This document shows, one piece after another, positions 2,279 to 15,174 of a DNA stretch of 15,174 nucleotides (the stretch's first letter is position 1; each line of letters opens with the position of its first letter). The position numbers were made by a program, and so were the translations under genes. Source of the DNA: Candidatus Bathyarchaeota archaeon (GTDB lineage: Archaea > Thermoproteota > Bathyarchaeia > TCS64); the NCBI GenBank assembly GCA_043826455.1, contig JBDRQD010000032.1, forward strand, positions 1 through 15,174. Direction: 5' to 3'. Under the pieces are notes generated by a model, which saw only the letters and a program-made list of their open reading frames with translations, had not been told where the DNA came from and made no database searches.

Positions 2279-2303
2279 CCCTGAACTGTGAGGAAATAAG
2301 CGG

Positions 2304-2388
2304 AAGGGGAGCTGGGCAGCAGCCCGGCTGAGAGGACGCTGTGCGTCGACCCTTTGAACCTGATCCAGGTAATACTGGCGGAGGGAAA
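2304..2388 (+). ncRNA. TPP (THI-box) riboswitch aptamer
   Basis: AGGGG-AGCTGGGC(agca)GCCCGGC-TGAGA-GGACGC(tgt)GCGTC-GACCCTTT-GAACCTGATCCAGGTAATACTGGCGGAGGGAA contains P2, P3, UGAGA, P3a, P4 and P5 with the consensus core. It lies directly upstream of thiamine genes. Confidence 0.93.
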
Positions 2389-2391
2389 GAA

Positions 2392-2976
2392 GTGAAGATA
2401 AGGAATATTGGATTCTGGGGGCACACACACGAGGCCCCACACAGTCACACCAGCAGCCTAGAAAAGAAACCTGAAAGCGCGGAGGGAGGCGGTGCGGCCA
2501 GAAGGATAGCACTATCTGCGGTCCTGTCGGCCCTCACCGTCGTGCTCTCACCCCTATACATACCACTCGGGGCCACCAAGTGCTTCCCGGCGCAGCACAT
2601 GATGAACGCTGTGGCGGGCGTACTCCTGGGGCCATGGTACGCGGCCGCCATGGCCGTGGTGACTGGCACTGTTAGGAACGCCCTGGGGCTGGGTACACTG
2701 TATGCCTATCCAGGAGGCATACCCGGCGCCCTGGTTGTGGGCCTAGCCCACAGGTACCTCAAGAAGACCGACCTTGTTGCGCTGATGGAGCCCCTGGGCA
2801 CGGTGGCGGTGGGCGCCACCCTGAGCGCCCTCCTGCTGGCTCCAGCCCTCGGCCAAAGCACGACCCTGATCTTCTTCTGGGCGGCCTTTGCGGCCAGCAG
2901 TGTACCCGGCGCGGTTCTAGGCTACGTGGTACTGAAGGCGTTGAGGAGACTTGGACTCATTGGAACTCTCCTTTAA
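2392..2976 (+). CDS. thiW: ECF-type thiazole transporter S component ThiW
   Basis: Motifs KCFPAQHMMNAVAGVLLGPWYA, RNALGLGTLYAYPGGIPGA, EPLGT and F.ASSVPGA, with several TM helices. GTG at 2392 follows GGAGGG (2380-2385). Confidence 0.88.
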   Translation: MKIRNIGFWGHTHEAPHSHTSSLEKKPESAEGGGAARRIALSAVLSALTVVLSPLYIPLGATKCFPAQHMMNAVAGVLLGPWYAAAMAVVTGTVRNALGLGTLYAYPGGIPGALVVGLAHRYLKKTDLVALMEPLGTVAVGATLSALLLAPALGQSTTLIFFWAAFAASSVPGAVLGYVVLKALRRLGLIGTLL

Positions 2977-2989
2977 GGAGCTCAGGGGA

Positions 2990-3514
2990 ATGAGGACCAT
3001 CATCCTCGGAGACGTGGGGACGGGCAAGACCCTCCTCACCAGGAGGCTCCTACATGAAGCCTTGGAGGAGGCGGGGGGGCTGGTAACTGTGCTGGACTTC
3101 GCGCCCCCAGCCAAGGTAGTTTCAGGCTTAAGGGTGGGCGGGCTCCTCACCGGGGAGGAGCACCCCAGGCTCAGGCACCTGAAGTCGAGCCTCATCGAGA
3201 CCCCGAGGCTATCGGCTGGAAGCGGCGACGAGCTGGTTAGGCTGGCCGACCACAACAAGAGGATCACAGAAGCCATGCTGAGAGAGTTCACCCTGTCACC
3301 CACAGAGGCCCTGTTCGTCAACGACGCCTCAATCTACTTGCAGAGGGGCGAGATCGATCGCCTTTGGCGAGCCTTCGAGGCCGCTGAGACGGTCGTGGCC
3401 AACGGCTACTACGGTGAGAAGCTGCAGGCGGACTACGGGACGGGGCTGTCCTCCAGGGAAAAGACGCTGATGGAGGAGCTCGCCTCTAGGATGGACAGGG
3501 TGATCAGGCTATGA
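2990..3514 (+). CDS. Small P-loop NTPase/kinase of unknown function
   Basis: Walker A IILGDVGTGKT and Walker B-like ALFVND. ATG at 2990 follows GGAG; an alternative TTG lies at 2951. Confidence 0.8.
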   Translation: MRTIILGDVGTGKTLLTRRLLHEALEEAGGLVTVLDFAPPAKVVSGLRVGGLLTGEEHPRLRHLKSSLIETPRLSAGSGDELVRLADHNKRITEAMLREFTLSPTEALFVNDASIYLQRGEIDRLWRAFEAAETVVANGYYGEKLQADYGTGLSSREKTLMEELASRMDRVIRL

Positions 3515-3568
3515 CCCACCCATCTTCTCCCCGTTTTTCAGGTTCAACGAAAGGAAGGAGTGATTGAA

Positions 3569-4864
3569 ATGACGACCCAGATGGAGTATGCGAAGAAGGG
3601 TAAGCTGACAGACGAGGTGAAGAGCGTCGCGAAGGCCGAGGGGTTGACCCCGGGGCACGTGATGCGCGGAGTCGCTGAGGGGCGGATAGTTATCACCCGT
3701 AACCTCGACCACGAGATCCCAGCGATGGGCATAGGTGACGGATTGAGGATAAAGGTGAACGCCAACATAGGCACGTCGAGGGATATCTGCGACGTCGACA
3801 GGGAGCTGCTGAAGGCGAAGGCCGCCCACGAGGCGGGCGCCGACACCTTGATGGATCTGAGCACCGGCGGCGACATCGACGCCAATAGGCGGAAGATCAT
3901 GAAGGCGACGCCTCTCCCCATCGGAACCGTCCCCATCTACCAGGCGGCCATCAATGCCCAGGAGAAGAGGGGCGCCATAGTCGACATGACGGAGGATGAC
4001 CTCTTCAATGTCATCGAGAGGAACGCGAAGGACGGCGTGGACTTCGTAACCGTTCACTGTGGCATAAACAAGGTCAGCGTGGACAGGATAAAGAGGAGCA
4101 AGAGGCTCACGGGCATCGTGAGCAGGGGAGGCACCTTCCTGGCCGCATGGATAATGCACAACGGCCAGGAGAACCCACTGTATGGGAACTACGACTACCT
4201 CCTCGAGCTGGCGAAGAAGTACGATATGGCGCTGAGCCTCGGCGACGGGCTTCGCCCGGGCTGCATACAGGACGCCACGGACGGCCCCCAGATCCAGGAA
4301 CTCATAATCATCGGAGAGCTCGTCGATCGGGCGAGAGCTGCGGGTGTGCAGGCGATGGTTGAAGGTCCTGGCCACGTACCCATCGACCAGATCGATGCGA
4401 ACGTCAAATTGGAGAAGGCGGTCTGCAAGGGGGCGCCTTTCTACGTCCTCGGGCCGCTGGTCACCGATGTCGCTCCGGGCTACGACCACATCGTCGGAGC
4501 CATAGGAGGAGCCGTGGCCGCCATGGCTGGGGCCGACTACCTCTGCTACGTGACGCCGACCGAGCACATAGGCCTCCCAGACGTGGAGGACGTGAGGGAG
4601 GGCGTGATCGTCTCCAGGATCGCGGCCCACGTGGGCGACCTCGTCAGGAGGAGGGATAAGGCGATCGTGTGGGATAACGACATGTCGAAGGCGCGGGCAG
4701 AGCTCGACTGGCAGAGGCAGATAGATCTCTCGATCAACCCGGCGAGGGTGAGGAGGGTGAAGGAGGAGCGCTCGCCGGGTGAGATGGCGGACAAGGGCTG
4801 CAGCATGTGCGGGGAGTACTGCGCCATCAAGATCCTCAAGGAGTACATGAGGGCGGAGCACTGA
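3569..4864 (+). CDS. thiC: Phosphomethylpyrimidine synthase ThiC
   Basis: Motifs KVNANIGTS, MDLSTGG, GTVPIYQ, VSRGG, LGDGLRPG, EGPGHVP, GYDHI, YVTPTEH and the C-terminal CSMCGEYC Fe-S motif. The thiamine context argues against BzaAB/F. SD GGAG precedes ATG 3569. Confidence 0.95.
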   Translation: MTTQMEYAKKGKLTDEVKSVAKAEGLTPGHVMRGVAEGRIVITRNLDHEIPAMGIGDGLRIKVNANIGTSRDICDVDRELLKAKAAHEAGADTLMDLSTGGDIDANRRKIMKATPLPIGTVPIYQAAINAQEKRGAIVDMTEDDLFNVIERNAKDGVDFVTVHCGINKVSVDRIKRSKRLTGIVSRGGTFLAAWIMHNGQENPLYGNYDYLLELAKKYDMALSLGDGLRPGCIQDATDGPQIQELIIIGELVDRARAAGVQAMVEGPGHVPIDQIDANVKLEKAVCKGAPFYVLGPLVTDVAPGYDHIVGAIGGAVAAMAGADYLCYVTPTEHIGLPDVEDVREGVIVSRIAAHVGDLVRRRDKAIVWDNDMSKARAELDWQRQIDLSINPARVRRVKEERSPGEMADKGCSMCGEYCAIKILKEYMRAEH

Positions 4865-6216
4865 TGCTCAAGATAGCGTGTGTTCTGACGATAGCCGGCT
4901 CCGACAGCGGAGGCGGGGCGGGCATTCAGGCGGACCTGAAGACCTTCGCGGCCCTGGGCGTCTACGGGATGTCAGCCATCACAGCAGTAACGGCTCAGAA
5001 CACGGTGGAGGTGACGGCCGTCCAGGACGTGGACCTTGAGGTTATCGCTGCCCAGATCGACGCCGTCGCCCGGGATATTGGAGTGGACGCGGCCAAGACG
5101 GGGATGCTTCATAAATCGGAGGTCATAGAGCTGGTCTCCGACAAGATAGTTGAGTACGGGTTCCCCGTGGTTGTGGACCCGGTGATGGTGGCCAAGAGCG
5201 GCGCCGAGCTCCTAGACCCCGAGGCCAAGAACACACTTGTAACTAGGTTGCTGCCCCTCGCCAAGGTGGTTACCCCCAACGCCTTGGAGGCCGAGGCCAT
5301 CACAGGGATCAAGGTGACCACCATCGAGGACGGGGTGGAGGCCGCCAAGGCCATCTACGAGACGGGCGTCGAGGCGGTGCTGGTGAAGGGGGGCCACATA
5401 TTCAGCGAGGACAAGGCCGTGGACGTGCTCTACCACCGGGGCGGGTTCAGGCTCCTGGAGGCTAAGAGGCACCAGACCGGGGACACCCACGGCACGGGGT
5501 GCAGCCTGAGCGCCGCCATAGCTGCTGAACTGGCAAAGGGAGCTGAGATACCTGACGCCGTGGAGAGGGCTAAGATGTACGTCAACACGGCCATCCTGCA
5601 TGGGCTCAGGCTGGGGCGCGGCCACGGCCCCCTGAACCACATGGCCGAGCTGACGAACGAGGCCGAAAAGATCACAGTCCTAGGGAATGTCCGAGAGGCC
5701 GTGAAGGTCATCGAGGCGGAGCCAAGGCTGCGAGAGCTGGTGGCCGAGTGCCAGATGAACGTGGGCATGGCCCTGCCCCACGCGTCCACGGTGGAGGACG
5801 TGGCTGCCGTGGAGGGTAGATTAACGAGGAGGGGTGCAGGCGTCAGGGCTTCGGGGTGTCCCTGGTTCGGTGCCTCTGGCCACGTGGCCAGAACTATACT
5901 GGCGGTGAGGAGGTTCGACCCGTCCGTGAGGGCCGCGTTGAATGTGAGGTACTCTGAGGAGGCCGTGAAGGCGCTTGGGGAGATGGGGCTGGTGGTCTCC
6001 CACTACGACAGGAGGGAGGAGCCGCCTGAGGTCAAAGCCTTGGAGGGCGGCACCACCTATTGGGGTGCGGAGCAGGCCGTCAGGAGGGCCGGGCGGGTGC
6101 CCGATGCCCTGTACCACCTGGGGGACTGGGGGAAGGAGCCCATGATCGTGCTCCTCGGCGAGTCGGCGACCAAGGTGGCAGGGATGGCCGTGGAGCTGGC
6201 CAGGAGGCTGTTTTAG
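4864..6216 (+). CDS. thiDN: Bifunctional HMP(-P) kinase / thiamine-phosphate synthase ThiD-ThiN fusion
   Basis: ThiD motifs TIAGSDSGGGAGIQADLKT, DPVMVAKSG, VKGGH and HGTGC. C-terminal ThiN motifs FGASGHVAR, YDRREEP and GDWGKEPMI. TGATG coupling to thiC. Confidence 0.95.
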   Translation: MLKIACVLTIAGSDSGGGAGIQADLKTFAALGVYGMSAITAVTAQNTVEVTAVQDVDLEVIAAQIDAVARDIGVDAAKTGMLHKSEVIELVSDKIVEYGFPVVVDPVMVAKSGAELLDPEAKNTLVTRLLPLAKVVTPNALEAEAITGIKVTTIEDGVEAAKAIYETGVEAVLVKGGHIFSEDKAVDVLYHRGGFRLLEAKRHQTGDTHGTGCSLSAAIAAELAKGAEIPDAVERAKMYVNTAILHGLRLGRGHGPLNHMAELTNEAEKITVLGNVREAVKVIEAEPRLRELVAECQMNVGMALPHASTVEDVAAVEGRLTRRGAGVRASGCPWFGASGHVARTILAVRRFDPSVRAALNVRYSEEAVKALGEMGLVVSHYDRREEPPEVKALEGGTTYWGAEQAVRRAGRVPDALYHLGDWGKEPMIVLLGESATKVAGMAVELARRLF

Positions 6217-6218
6217 CT

Positions 6219-6887
6219 GTGGGGTTCTCCGACGAACTCAAGTACCATGCCAGGGATATCTGGGACGCCATCCTGGCTCACCCTTTCGTGGCCGAGCTGG
6301 GGAACGGCTCGCTGCCGCCCGAGAAGTACCTCTACTACATAAAGCAGGACTACGCCTACCTCCTGGACTTCTCACGGTGCCTGGGGCTGGCGGCGTCCAA
6401 GGCCGGGAGCCCGGAGGATATGCACACCCTGGCGGGGTTGATGAACGGGTGCCTGAGCTACGAGCTGAACATCCTCACAGGCCATCTCTGGGAGCTTGGG
6501 CTGACCGGTGAGGAGATAGGCTCTATAGAGATGGCGCCCACCAACCACGCGTATACGCGTCACATGCTGCACGTGGCGTACTCTGGCTCGGTGGGTGAGG
6601 ACCTGGCTGCGCTGCTGCCCTGCATGTGGACTTACAGGCTGATAGGGGAGAAGCTGTGGGCGGAGAGGGCCGAGGCGATTCCAAGGCACTATCTTGAGTG
6701 GATCGAGGGGTACAGGGCCCCAGAGTACTTGGCTCTCGTGGACAAGTACCGGGCCATGGTGGACTCCTGTGGGGAGGGGGCGGGTTCCATGGAGCGGTCG
6801 CTGATGGTGAGGCACTTCTTGACGAGCAGCAGGTACGAGTACATGTTCTGGGGCATGGCTTACAGGATGGAGAAGTGGCTCATTTAA
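6219..6887 (+). CDS. tenA: Thiaminase II / aminopyrimidine aminohydrolase TenA (Cys-type)
   Basis: Motifs HPFV.EL..G.L, YIKQDYAYL, AYTRHM, the catalytic LLPCMWTY, WIEGY and EYMFW. GTG start 2 bp after the thiDN stop. Confidence 0.92.
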   Translation: MGFSDELKYHARDIWDAILAHPFVAELGNGSLPPEKYLYYIKQDYAYLLDFSRCLGLAASKAGSPEDMHTLAGLMNGCLSYELNILTGHLWELGLTGEEIGSIEMAPTNHAYTRHMLHVAYSGSVGEDLAALLPCMWTYRLIGEKLWAERAEAIPRHYLEWIEGYRAPEYLALVDKYRAMVDSCGEGAGSMERSLMVRHFLTSSRYEYMFWGMAYRMEKWLI

Positions 6888-7083: not shown

Positions 7084-7899
7084 ATGACTCCAGAAAATCC
7101 ACGCGTGAGTGGTGATACTGAAGCCAAGCTACGGTTCACACGAGACACGCTGAACCAGTTCCACACAGTAGAGGACGTGGCCATGTTCTCCACGGCCATA
7201 CTGCACTCCATCATACCCACCGACAAGGTCGCCCTTGCAGTCGTCGAGGGCAACATCCTGAAGTCTGTGAGCACCATCGGCAGGCGGGTGATCATGGACC
7301 TGAGCCTGGACCAGCCCAGCATAAACGGCCGAGCCGTCAGGACCGGGCAGACCCAGCTTGTGAACGATACGCGGGAGGACCCCGACTACTTCCCGGGGGA
7401 CGGCGGCGACAGCTTCACCATGCTGTCCGAGCTGTGCGTACCGTTGATCCATGAGGGAGAGGCCCTGGGAACCATCAACTTCGAGAGCAAGACGCTTGGG
7501 CGCTTCACCAGTGAAGAAGCCGAGGCCGCCGAGGCCTTCGCGGGGGAGATCTCCGACGCCCTGCACCGTGTGCTGGGCGACGAACAGGCGAAGGGAGGAC
7601 AAGTATGCTACCTGACTGGGACCCGCTCCACGCTGGACAGGTACTATGATGTTCTGAGGGTCGTATACGATGGCGAGTCCGTGATGAACAAGATTCTGAA
7701 CAGGACTGCGATCCAGTGGATGCCGGGGAAGCAGCTGATAGACGACCTCGTGCACAAGGGGTACCTTGAGAAGAAGAATGTATCAGCCTCCAGGTACGCC
7801 TACAGGATGACCGAGGAGGGCGTCAAGGCCCTGAAGACCTACGAGGACATCGTCGAGAACCTCGGCAAACAGCGTCTCCAAACCCATTCAATCACATGA
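7084..7899 (+). CDS. GAF sensor domain + C-terminal archaeal winged-helix regulator
   Basis: GAF motifs GRAVRTGQTQLVNDTREDPDY, SELCVPL and GTINFES....FT.EE. The C-terminal R..LD.YYDVL...L..KGYL...Y.MTEEG..AL resembles archaeal HTH_45-type wHTH. Confidence 0.8.
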   Translation: MTPENPRVSGDTEAKLRFTRDTLNQFHTVEDVAMFSTAILHSIIPTDKVALAVVEGNILKSVSTIGRRVIMDLSLDQPSINGRAVRTGQTQLVNDTREDPDYFPGDGGDSFTMLSELCVPLIHEGEALGTINFESKTLGRFTSEEAEAAEAFAGEISDALHRVLGDEQAKGGQVCYLTGTRSTLDRYYDVLRVVYDGESVMNKILNRTAIQWMPGKQLIDDLVHKGYLEKKNVSASRYAYRMTEEGVKALKTYEDIVENLGKQRLQTHSIT

Positions 7900-7912
7900 A
7901 ATAGGTGAGCCG

Positions 7913-8638
7913 CTACAACATGGCCGGCTCAGAGCACAGCACGTTGAGGCCTCCCCCCGTGACCACGTACCGCCTCGGCTCCTCGTCGTAGCCTATCCCG
8001 CGCATCTTATCGATCCTAAGAGTCTTGACGAGCTGAAATCCCAGCAGATCCCTCTGCATGCATATGACTCCGTCCGAGAGGAAGCTCTCAGAGTAGACGG
8101 CGTCGTCTCTGGGCAGGTCCTCAGACGTGATCAGGGCCGAGCAGCCCAAGCCCCGTATGGACTCGTAGAGCGTGTGCACCGTGTACCGCTTCCTCTGCGA
8201 GTTATTCTCATGAACCAGAATGCTGGTAAGCGGATCAAGGACGATGTGCCTGGCCTTGACTCTATGGGCGGCCTCGGCTATCTGGCTCTCTATGGTGAAG
8301 CTGAGCTCCCCGCTGGCCCTCTCAACGAGCTCGACGGCGCTGCCTCGGGGGACAAACTGGTAGTCCAGAATAGCTAGGAGCCCATCTTTCTCAGCAGCCT
8401 CCAGGTCCCAACCGAAGGCTCTCGCATAAGCCTTTTTCTTATGCATGGGCTCCTCGAGGCTCACGTAGACGCACGGCTCGCCTCTTCATAGGGCTGCGTC
8501 CATGTACTGGAGGGAGAGGATGGTCTTGCCTGACCCGGGGCCACCACACACAAGGACGATGCTCATGGCTGGGAACCCGCCGCACAGCATCTCGTCCAGG
8601 CCCTGAACCCCCGGTACTCTAGGTAGTGGTTTAACCAA
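7913..8638 (-). pseudogene. KaiC/RAD55-like RecA-fold ATPase interrupted by an in-frame TGA
   Basis: From TTG 8638 the frame reads VKPLPRVPGVQGLDEMLCGGFPAMSIVLVCGGPGSGKTILSLQYMDAAL*RGEPCVYVSLEE...VLDPLT...SDGVI...LRIDKMRG. The stop is at 8486-8488, in the same frame as ORF 7913..8464. Confidence 0.88.
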
Positions 8639-10954: not shown

Positions 10955-11121
10955 GAACTCACAAGCATAGCCTTATGTTTATAAAAACGTTCATAACTAT
11001 ATAAGATAACTACATCAATCCCATTACCCTCCTCTATATTCGTTGCTCTGCTCTCATGGTCTGTATTTTAGTGCCGTGGAAGAGGAGAAGGCCAGGAGCC
11101 TCCTGAGAGAAGGTACAAGTC

Positions 11122-11481
11122 CTACAGGAGGCTGTCTGTCTTCGCGGCGGCGAGGCGCTCCTTGAACTGCTAGATGGTGCTGTAGTCGAGCGGCTGCCCC
11201 GGGAACCCGAAGAACCGCTGGACGCTGATCCTGTCTGCCACCTGCCTCTGCAGCTCTGGGTCGCTGAGGCCGTACCAAGCTTGTAGCACCAGCAGCTTCA
11301 TCATCACCACCGGGTCGGTGTTGGGTCTGCCTCCCCTGTGGGTGTCTTTGGTGTACATGGGTTTGATGATGGGTCTGAACCGTTCCCAGTCTAATTGTTT
11401 CTCTGCTGAGGCGAGTCTGTCGCCGTTTCGGGATGTTTTCACGTACAGCTTCCTGAGGAGGTAGGAGTCAAAGGAGTCCAT
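11122..11481 (-). pseudogene. IS5-family transposase N-terminal remnant (InsH N-term/DUF772-like)
   Basis: DWERFRP, GGRPNTDPVVMMKLLVLQAWYGLSDPEL, DRISVQRFFG and DYSTI*QFKERL...LL*. TAG stops at 11170-11172 and 11122-11124, after which similarity is lost. Confidence 0.9.
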
Positions 11482-13515: not shown

Positions 13516-15174
13516 GTGGAATTGCCTGAACTTATAGAAATAATTAGTTCAAGGCCATCGAGTCTATTTATTGGAGCTGGTTTCTCGATGGACGCTGGTG
13601 GTCCTGGTGGGCATAGACTTATTCAAGAGTTAAAAGTCAAGTTTGGAGATTTTAATACAAATGATTTATTTGATTATTTAGAAGAAAAAATAGGCATCGA
13701 TTCAGATAGAAGAAAAGAAATTGAAAAATATCTTAAAAAATATTTAGTTAATTTAACTCCAAATGAAAATCAAAAATATTTATTTTCGATCCCGTGGAAG
13801 GCTATATTAACAACAAATTATGATCTAATACCTGATAGGATTTTAACAAGTAATGATGGGAAACGGGATGTATCTTGTGTAATAAGTGAAAATGATAGGA
13901 TAGATATTAGAAGAGAAGATAAATTATATTGTTTTAAACTTTTTGGAGATGTAAATAAAGAATATCCTGAAGAGGGCCATATGATATTAACTAGAAGTGA
14001 TAGAAGACATTCAATATCAAGAATTTATTATTTTTATAAATTATTTAAAGACTTGGCTATATCTGGAAATATGATATATCTAGGATATTCCTTTAATGAT
14101 AATTTAGTATTAGATTTATTAGCAGATTTACAATATTCTTTAAAAAAAATTCCATGGAAAGGTTATGCAATTATTCCGAAACAGCCATCGAGTGATATAT
14201 TAAAGAAATTTGAAAAATATAATATAGAATGGGTAGAAGGAACAGTCGATCAATTTGTAAAGGAATTAGAACAAGTATTCACTAATAAACCAATAAGTTA
14301 TATTATGGAAGACAAAACTATTATTTTAAAAAATAGAGGATTAACTATCAGCAAACAAACTCAAATTAATACAAGATATCAGATTAAATATTTACATAGT
14401 GAATTATTAGAACCAATAGTGGATAATCCAAAATATTTTTTTGAAGGTAAAGATGATTCTTTTTATCCATATGTTAAAAATTGGGATATCGAACGGAAAG
14501 TATTGACTCATAGTTATAAAAGTAAAAATGTACCAAATTATCAGTTAAATTCTAGATTTTTTATACTAAATAGATCTACTAAATTTAATGCTACAGAGAA
14601 TATAAAAATTATATTATTAGGTACAGCGGGATCGGGAAAAACTGTAGTTGCTAAGAGAATAGCTTACGAATGGTATAAAGAAGGTAATCCTGTTATTTTT
14701 ATAGAACCACAAGGATATCAAATAGATAGAAAATCAATTGAAGGTTTTATAGAAGAATTAAATATTAATTATTTAAAAAGGATTGAACTGTTTGGAGATA
14801 AAGAAAATGCTTTAAGAATTTTATTAATTGCTGATAATCAAACCATTCATCTTAAAAATATTATTGACTTTTATCATTATTTATCTTCGAAAGATATTCT
14901 AGTAGATTTACTGGTAGTTGATAGATTTAGTAATTTGCCTTGGAAAAAATTAGATGAGTATGAATTTGATGCAGTATATACTATAAATAATACTTTAGAT
15001 GAATCAGATCAGTTTAAGTTTGTAAATCATTTAAAAAATAATGTAAATTTAGATATATCTGAAGAAGATATTATTAGAAATCTTAAAGATGAAGAAATTA
15101 ATAATAATTTTTTTGCTTTGATGTATTCGACCATTAAAGAAGTAAGAAAACCATTGAAGGATATTATAATAGAT
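13516..15174 (+). CDS. SIR2-like domain + STAND P-loop NTPase (Avs5/AVAST-like defence protein), partial
   Basis: Open for 553 codons from GTG 13516 to the window end. Motifs LFIGAGFS (13564-13587), TTNYD (13810-13824), KLFG (13936-13947), YLGYSFND (14077-14100), Walker A GTAGSGKT (14620-14643) and Walker B LLIADN (14821-14838). Strongly AT-rich. Confidence 0.85.
   Translation, partial: MELPELIEIISSRPSSLFIGAGFSMDAGGPGGHRLIQELKVKFGDFNTNDLFDYLEEKIGIDSDRRKEIEKYLKKYLVNLTPNENQKYLFSIPWKAILTTNYDLIPDRILTSNDGKRDVSCVISENDRIDIRREDKLYCFKLFGDVNKEYPEEGHMILTRSDRRHSISRIYYFYKLFKDLAISGNMIYLGYSFNDNLVLDLLADLQYSLKKIPWKGYAIIPKQPSSDILKKFEKYNIEWVEGTVDQFVKELEQVFTNKPISYIMEDKTIILKNRGLTISKQTQINTRYQIKYLHSELLEPIVDNPKYFFEGKDDSFYPYVKNWDIERKVLTHSYKSKNVPNYQLNSRFFILNRSTKFNATENIKIILLGTAGSGKTVVAKRIAYEWYKEGNPVIFIEPQGYQIDRKSIEGFIEELNINYLKRIELFGDKENALRILLIADNQTIHLKNIIDFYHYLSSKDILVDLLVVDRFSNLPWKKLDEYEFDAVYTINNTLDESDQFKFVNHLKNNVNLDISEEDIIRNLKDEEINNNFFALMYSTIKEVRKPLKDIIID

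Follow-up and report, generated by a model that had tools for sequence, protein, structure and literature searches.

ThiM (PF02110, TIGR00694) is a ribokinase-like enzyme. PMC3020362 names ThiM as the thiazole kinase, and ThiK and TPK as the enzymes of thiamine salvage. PMC6593275 lists ThiC, ThiD, ThiE, ThiM and ThiL for auxotrophs of 4-methyl-5-(2-hydroxyethyl)thiazole (HET) and names ThiW and ThiU as HET transporters; HET as the substrate of ThiW is itself a prediction in that source.

We analysed a stretch of 15,174 nt from a Candidatus Bathyarchaeota genome, called the window here. Among its thiamine genes is one for a P-loop protein, which we name X (product of window positions 2990-3514, plus strand). 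X resembles ThiM in its proposed reaction, its place in the pathway, its partners ThiE and ThiD and its control by a TPP riboswitch. In contrast to ThiM, it has no sequence match to PF02110 or TIGR00694, and its predicted fold is that of a RecA-like protein with a P-loop and a length of 174-190 amino acids.

The thiW-X-thiC-thiDN-tenA operon and its genome

The genes thiW-X-thiC-thiDN-tenA form a same-strand run downstream of a TPP riboswitch (Table 1). Pfam and NCBIfam models confirmed the identities that a first-pass annotation had given to ThiW, ThiC, ThiDN and TenA. We placed the thiW start at GTG 2392 because a GGAGG precedes it (2380-2384); the longest ORF starts further upstream, at 2341. 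This likely ribosome-binding site of thiW (window 2380-2394) falls within the riboswitch match, immediately 5' of the GTG.

Table 1. Features of the thiamine operon in the window.
Feature	Position	Strand	Evidence or size
TPP riboswitch (RF00059), head of operon	2295..2405	+	cmscan 64.1 bits against a gathering threshold of 54.3, E 6.8e-11
thiW, ECF S component, predicted HET importer	2392..2976	+	TIGR02359 156 bits, PF09512
gene X, candidate HET kinase with a P-loop and a predicted small RecA-like fold	2990..3514	+	174 aa
thiC, phosphomethylpyrimidine synthase	3560..4864	+	NF009895 645.7 bits
thiDN, HMP/HMP-P kinase fused to ThiN thiamine-phosphate synthase	4864..6216	+	NF006346 559 bits; PF08543 + PF10120
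tenA, thiaminase II, putative start (longest ORF from 6060)	6219..6887	+	TIGR04306 156 bits

The absence of thiM, thi4 and thiG, noted before for the operon, was borne out and extends to the whole source genome (97.66% complete, 7.21% contaminated). No full-length ThiM, Thi4 or ThiG was found there: Pfam models gave short cross-matches only, and the TIGR models for ThiM (TIGR00694) and Thi4 had no match anywhere in the genome. One ThiM candidate, a 506-aa frame, was rejected, as PF02110 matched it over 85 positions and TIGR00694 not at all; the Thi4 and ThiG candidates were rejected as short cross-matches. A genome-wide search found neither TPK nor ThiK. The genome holds ThiC, two ThiDN, two ThiW, ThiT and ThiL. 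This is the HET-auxotroph set of Table 1 in PMC6593275 with ThiN replacing ThiE and minus ThiM.

A second copy of X with 52.6% identity was found in the same genome (C66:6341-6859). It is part of an operon thiW-X-thiDN-tenA-thiT downstream of a TPP riboswitch, and two TPP riboswitches are present there. Two thiW-X-thiDN-tenA operons (C32, C66) thus occur in one assembly with 7.21% contamination, and one of them may be misbinned. In relatives, however, two copies were found on single contigs as well (L013; G223 C22).

Family and predicted fold of X

The 174-aa reading frame of X proved to be a real gene. A sequence search gave 125 homologues at E<=0.001 and a profile search gave 275 cluster representatives (50% identity) at E<=1e-10, so X is not a chance ORF. 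Translation may start at an in-frame TTG at 2951, giving 187 aa, since the match to the family profile begins at 2963 and the nearest homologue (P0002) has 187 aa. The motifs described for X by the first-pass annotation were all found at their places in the translated ORF: GDVGTGKT (residues 7-14), LFVNDASIYL (108-117), VVANG (135-139) and the C-terminal element EELASRMDRVIRL (162-174). Its statement that X is not an EcfA also held. The ABC signature LSGGQ is missing from X and from the family alignment, and a separate EcfA is present in the same operons, which rules out an EcfA or other ABC ATPase.

Pfam and NCBIfam gave no match to X above the cut-off, and a PDB sequence search gave matches at the level of the P-loop only. 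The best matches in the ESM Atlas were unnamed clusters (NTPase_1 score 0.81). No description of the family was found in the literature searched, subscription papers and archaeal ThiR-regulon work being outside this search, and X is not mentioned in the accessible part of PMC13325395. Judged by these sequence comparisons, X is the founder of an unnamed family. Members were found in Bathyarchaeia, Methanocellales, Theionarchaea, deltaproteobacterial lineages, Promethearchaeota and Calditenuaceae, and named homologues include Candidatus Bathyarchaeota proteins. When P0159 alone was used to scan metagenomes, no match was obtained. Across 142 diverse X sequences three residues never vary (G7, N89, E157), and at least 90% of the sequences share G12, K13, T14, D36, P39, G50, P72, R73, N111, D112, G120, Y140 and G142.

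Fusions of X to other proteins were also observed. An in-frame ThiW-X fusion is present on one contig and another in P0122. P0263 (EcfT-X) and P0243 (X-MnmA) are one library protein each, known from the protein sequence alone. An EcfT-X fusion in Desulfacinum was rejected, because the extended reading frames that precede X there proved to be shadow frames with no EcfT match.

The AlphaFold2 model of X had a pLDDT of 92.4; its core is RecA-like, and Walker A follows the first strand. The best Foldseek match, among RecA-like proteins, was thymidine kinase (E 5e-4, TM 0.46). With VIA-align the best matches were CobA/BtuR (PF02572, 1g5r; Z 13.4, rmsd 2.8, 138 aligned), the type II thymidine kinase TK1 (PF00265; 2orv, 2qq0; Z 12.0, rmsd 2.6, 119 aligned) and the adenosylcobinamide kinase/guanylyltransferase CobU (PF02283, 9vio; Z 11.8, rmsd 2.6, 127 aligned), with identity of at most 14-15%. 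The likeness to CobU and thymidine kinase suggested before from the sequence was recovered in the model, which is CobA/TK1/CobU-like. The matches among those listed were all P-loop proteins, and a ThiM chain was not among the matches listed. Walker B of X is N111-D112, not D-E, nor D-C as in CobU, so that Asn111 takes the position of the Walker B Asp; D36 is conserved in addition.

CobA gave the sole near-full-length profile alignment. A profile of 7 CobA sequences aligned with X over 150 columns (probability 84.6%) and placed N111-D112 on the CobA D-E motif. X has no PF02572 match, however, and carries the full GxxxxGKT P-loop, while the CobA loop GxGKGKT is one residue shorter. The context of X is thiamine and not cobalamin, and the source genome has a separate CobA.

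TK1 phosphorylates a primary alcohol, and thymidine kinase carries a C-terminal Cys4 zinc-lasso domain. This domain is missing in X, which is free of Cys and whose match to TK stops at about residue 150 of the latter; the family alignment contains no conserved Cys either. X further differs from TK1 by N-D instead of D-E and by the low identity of 14-15%. PF00265 was not among the matches of X (25 of 45 families listed), and a search of five carrier genomes yielded no thymidine kinase.

CobU is similar to X in size and in a C-terminal helix-strand, but from a profile of 5 CobU sequences the P-loop alone aligned (22 columns), and PF02283 did not match. The CobU motifs RI.RH..R and NEVG.G are missing in X, and X carriers have their own CobU. 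Because of the fold scores and the partial profile alignments we place X near the small-RecA group of CobA, TK1 and CobU, yet outside each of the families in it. Likeness of fold does not reveal function.

Gene neighbourhoods and distribution of X

We compared 148 loci with X, the best 80 of 99 GTDB loci and 68 metagenome loci, for genes within 5 kb. A core thiamine gene was present in 125 of 148 loci (63 of the best 80 of 99 GTDB loci, 62 of 68 metagenome loci). Many metagenome loci have an identical gene order and may not be independent. The homologues of X are linked to thiamine genes. thiW was found in 103 of the 148 loci, CytX in 15 and thiM in none. The six metagenome loci without a core thiamine gene had less than 650 bases upstream of X. 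In ten of the 17 GTDB loci without one, the Nramp-like or MFS carrier found upstream of X in thi operons was present, in two of them along with a TPP riboswitch; seven of the best 80 of 99 GTDB loci showed no thiamine link. The gene orders include thiE-thiW-ecfA-ecfT-X, thiC-thiE-MFS-X, Nramp-like-X-thiDN-cytX and thiDN-thiW-X. Since position and partners of X vary, its link to thiamine genes is not that of one inherited block.

Several other genes recur in these loci. An Nramp-like permease gene lies between the TPP riboswitch and X in seven loci (L042, L043, L059, L062, L067, L068, L073), the riboswitch being an Rfam match in L042, L043 and L067 and the result of a motif scan in the others; the permease is a candidate new thiazole carrier. 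A gene for an MFS protein similar to aromatic-acid symporters lies between thiE and X in L033 (6757-7959), L034, L044, L046 and L051, and this protein is possibly ThiU-like. A MenA-like prenyltransferase gene is located between thiC (or the riboswitch) and thiE in L034 (5107-6117), L036 and L076. In other archaea HTH-ThiN proteins, which we take to be ThiR-like regulators, adjoin X operons (L018 9073-10044, L009 12130-13185, L037 4357-5082).

Across 201 Bathyarchaeia genomes, each at least 75% complete, X was present in 54 and ThiW in 52, with both in 48 (expected 14); most of the genomes sampled in this study are incomplete MAGs. A ThiD(N) match was found in 47 of the 48 genomes with X and ThiW, some of them split at contig ends. 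Thi4 was present in 34 genomes but together with X in 1 (expected 9). Genuine ThiM was found in 3 of the 201 genomes, 2 of them with X; a genome that is 79% complete (G172) has thiC-thiM without X.

The exclusion of ThiM and Thi4 is less clean outside Bathyarchaeia. Among 251 genomes of Desulfobacterota, the phylum of Desulfacinum hydrothermale, X was present in 26. ThiG occurred in 83 of these 251 genomes with no overlap with X, and ThiM in 59, with an overlap of 2 (expected 6), one of these a frameshifted X. This anti-correlation with ThiM is modest (one-sided Fisher p=0.03, related genomes being non-independent). For carriers outside Bathyarchaeia the 50 genomes behind the GTDB loci were counted, leaving out L055. 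X carriers mostly lack ThiM, which was found in 2 of 54 Bathyarchaeia carriers and in 12 of these 50 genomes, mostly Syntrophales and Desulfarculaceae. Where checked, the ThiM of X carriers belongs to a separate thiM-thiE cluster, and thiM stands beside thiE in most loci examined. Thi4 was found in 21 carriers out of a mostly bacterial set of 71, which means that X also occurs outside thiazole auxotrophs; coexistence of salvage enzymes and de novo routes is common. Of the phylogenetic profile expected for a substitute of ThiM, the part that X follows thiW and thiDN was found, while its avoidance of ThiM is incomplete because of the 12 carriers outside Bathyarchaeia.

Walker A was intact in 171 of 177 full-length X copies from the loci collected. 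The six copies lacking it are the same six that, in Bathyarchaeia, occur without ThiW, and they have lost the NGY motif too. Five of these six genomes are without ThiDN, and neither ThiE nor TPK was found in the four of the five that were tested. As Walker A fails only where ThiW, and in five of six cases also ThiDN, is gone, the catalytic motifs of X are retained only alongside the enzyme consuming HET phosphate (HET-P). In a single-contig genome (G208) thiW is kept, and X and ThiDN are both missing.

The Walker A-less copies form a subfamily in six genomes of the source genus (L101 2886-3590, minus strand; L106 1626-2318, minus strand; L102-L105). Two degenerate copies stand alone 7 bases 3' of a TPP riboswitch. 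From their sequence and position, such copies could be relics or could have a non-catalytic thiamine-related role. A ThiL/PurM-like (AIRS) protein is encoded beside thi operons (L001 4574-5563, L004 1212-2648, L005 5157-6584, L100 8118-9143) and is fused to a ThiN domain in some loci. Genomes G145 and G169 have ThiT and ThiL and are missing ThiDN, ThiE and TPK; they therefore also lack a thiamine kinase, for which the AIRS protein is a candidate.

Proposed function of X and alternatives

Gene content, neighbourhoods, genome profiles and the conservation and loss of motifs, taken together with the predicted fold, suggest that X is likely a non-orthologous, ATP-dependent kinase of HET or a close thiazole relative, replacing ThiM; it is the substrate and the reaction that we infer. 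HET would be imported by ThiW, in bacteria by the neighbouring MFS or Nramp-like permease, or released from thiamine by TenA. X would then transfer the gamma-phosphate of ATP to the hydroxyethyl OH of HET to give HET-P. K13 and T14 are predicted to bind the nucleotide, and Asp112, which falls on the Glu of the DE motif in CobA, would be a possible general base acting on the primary alcohol. ThiC and ThiD would provide HMP-PP, which ThiN or ThiE would join with HET-P to TMP. ThiL would convert TMP to TPP, and TPP would repress the operon via the riboswitch. This assignment is weakened by the carriers that have ThiM or Thi4, the seven loci with no thiamine link and the degenerate copies kept behind riboswitches. 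It is also weakened by the fold, which is closest to that of an adenosyltransferase, and by Asn111 in the place of the Walker B Asp.

We also consider it fairly probable that X represents a second, unrelated thiazole kinase family (RecA fold, N-D Walker B). Bathyarchaeia that are thiazole auxotrophs, and other archaea, would obtain thiazole phosphate mainly through X. The family would be shared with Desulfobacterota, where it would be paired with new carriers (Nramp-like, MFS), and it may prefer another vitamer (cHET) where ThiM is present. The reaction proposed for X is known; the family and the fold are new. If the assignment is correct, a step of vitamin B1 synthesis hitherto given to ThiM alone has a new enzyme family, and one reaction is carried out on two unrelated folds. 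About a quarter of the sampled Bathyarchaeia (48/201), Methanocellales and hot-spring archaea would then be thiazole scavengers, as would about a tenth of the sampled Desulfobacterota, and unrecognised thiazole transporters would be indicated. The thiamine pathways of the carriers now look broken, and X would therefore have a bearing on vitamin cross-feeding in anoxic sediments. Cultured carriers of X are available in the Desulfacinum type strains.

The first-pass annotation had proposed a thiazole or thiamine kinase. Fold and co-occurrence support the thiazole branch, while the profile of ThiT weakens the thiamine branch: ThiT was present in only 18 of 48 genomes with X and ThiW, compared to 18 of 20 genomes of the same family without X. 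A kinase converting thiamine to TMP in place of ThiK would agree with the source genome, which has ThiT and ThiL but neither TPK nor ThiK, would act on the same hydroxyethyl OH, which thiamine also bears, and would account for the coexistence of X with ThiM. Yet X decays where ThiDN is gone, the very setting that would leave a thiamine kinase as the sole route, and its gene clusters with those of ThiE and ThiN, both dispensable for a thiamine kinase. We regard this function as unlikely.

X is usually encoded 3' of a transporter gene, ThiW-X and EcfT-X fusions exist, many archaeal operons have thiW without ecfAT, and catalytically degenerate X persists behind TPP riboswitches. All this would fit an ATPase linked to transport, or a partner that regulates the thiazole importer, instead of a metabolic kinase. 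We nevertheless find such a role quite improbable, because X has no ABC signature and is found in riboswitch-X-thiDN operons without thiW (L009, L023). Some of its neighbours are ThiW-EcfAT modules that are already complete, others unrelated secondary carriers (MFS, Nramp-like, CytX), which work without an ATPase. Moreover, the lack of a source of HET-P would stay unfilled.

The structural match to CobA/BtuR with its near-full-length profile alignment, and the N-D Walker B, would rather point to other chemistry on a thiazole or thiamine derivative, either nucleotidyl or adenosyl transfer as in CobA and CobU or the hydrolysis of a thiazole that has been phosphorylated or adenylated. Against this, X has the full GxxxxGKT loop and not the GxGKGKT of CobA, and the gene sets miss a source of thiazole phosphate, not a transferase; the chance that X acts in this way is small. 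Although X often adjoins thiDN and cytX, a kinase of the pyrimidine side or of the terminal step (HMP kinase, or TMP kinase replacing ThiL) is highly improbable, as ThiD is encoded in the same operons, X tracks ThiW over CytX (103 versus 15 of 148 loci) and 71 of the 80 genomes checked, 79 being carriers, encode ThiL, on which ground the replacement of ThiL was rejected.

HET phosphorylation thus is the function we prefer for X. The rest of the window contains genes of other kinds. At 147-1613 on the minus strand lie a DprA/SLOG gene (PF02481) and, after it, a PRTase-like gene, in a stretch with a GC content of 44.8% compared to 62.4% for the operon; such pairs are known from anti-phage systems. 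Regions 7084-8464 and 11054-11481 comprise a GAF-winged-helix protein, an N-truncated KaiC-like ATPase and short ORFs, which we take to be transposase fragments. A 3'-open ORF of low GC content at 13516-15174 (plus strand) has what we assume to be a Sir2-like start and later a P-loop GTAGSGKT, and is possibly a defence NTPase.
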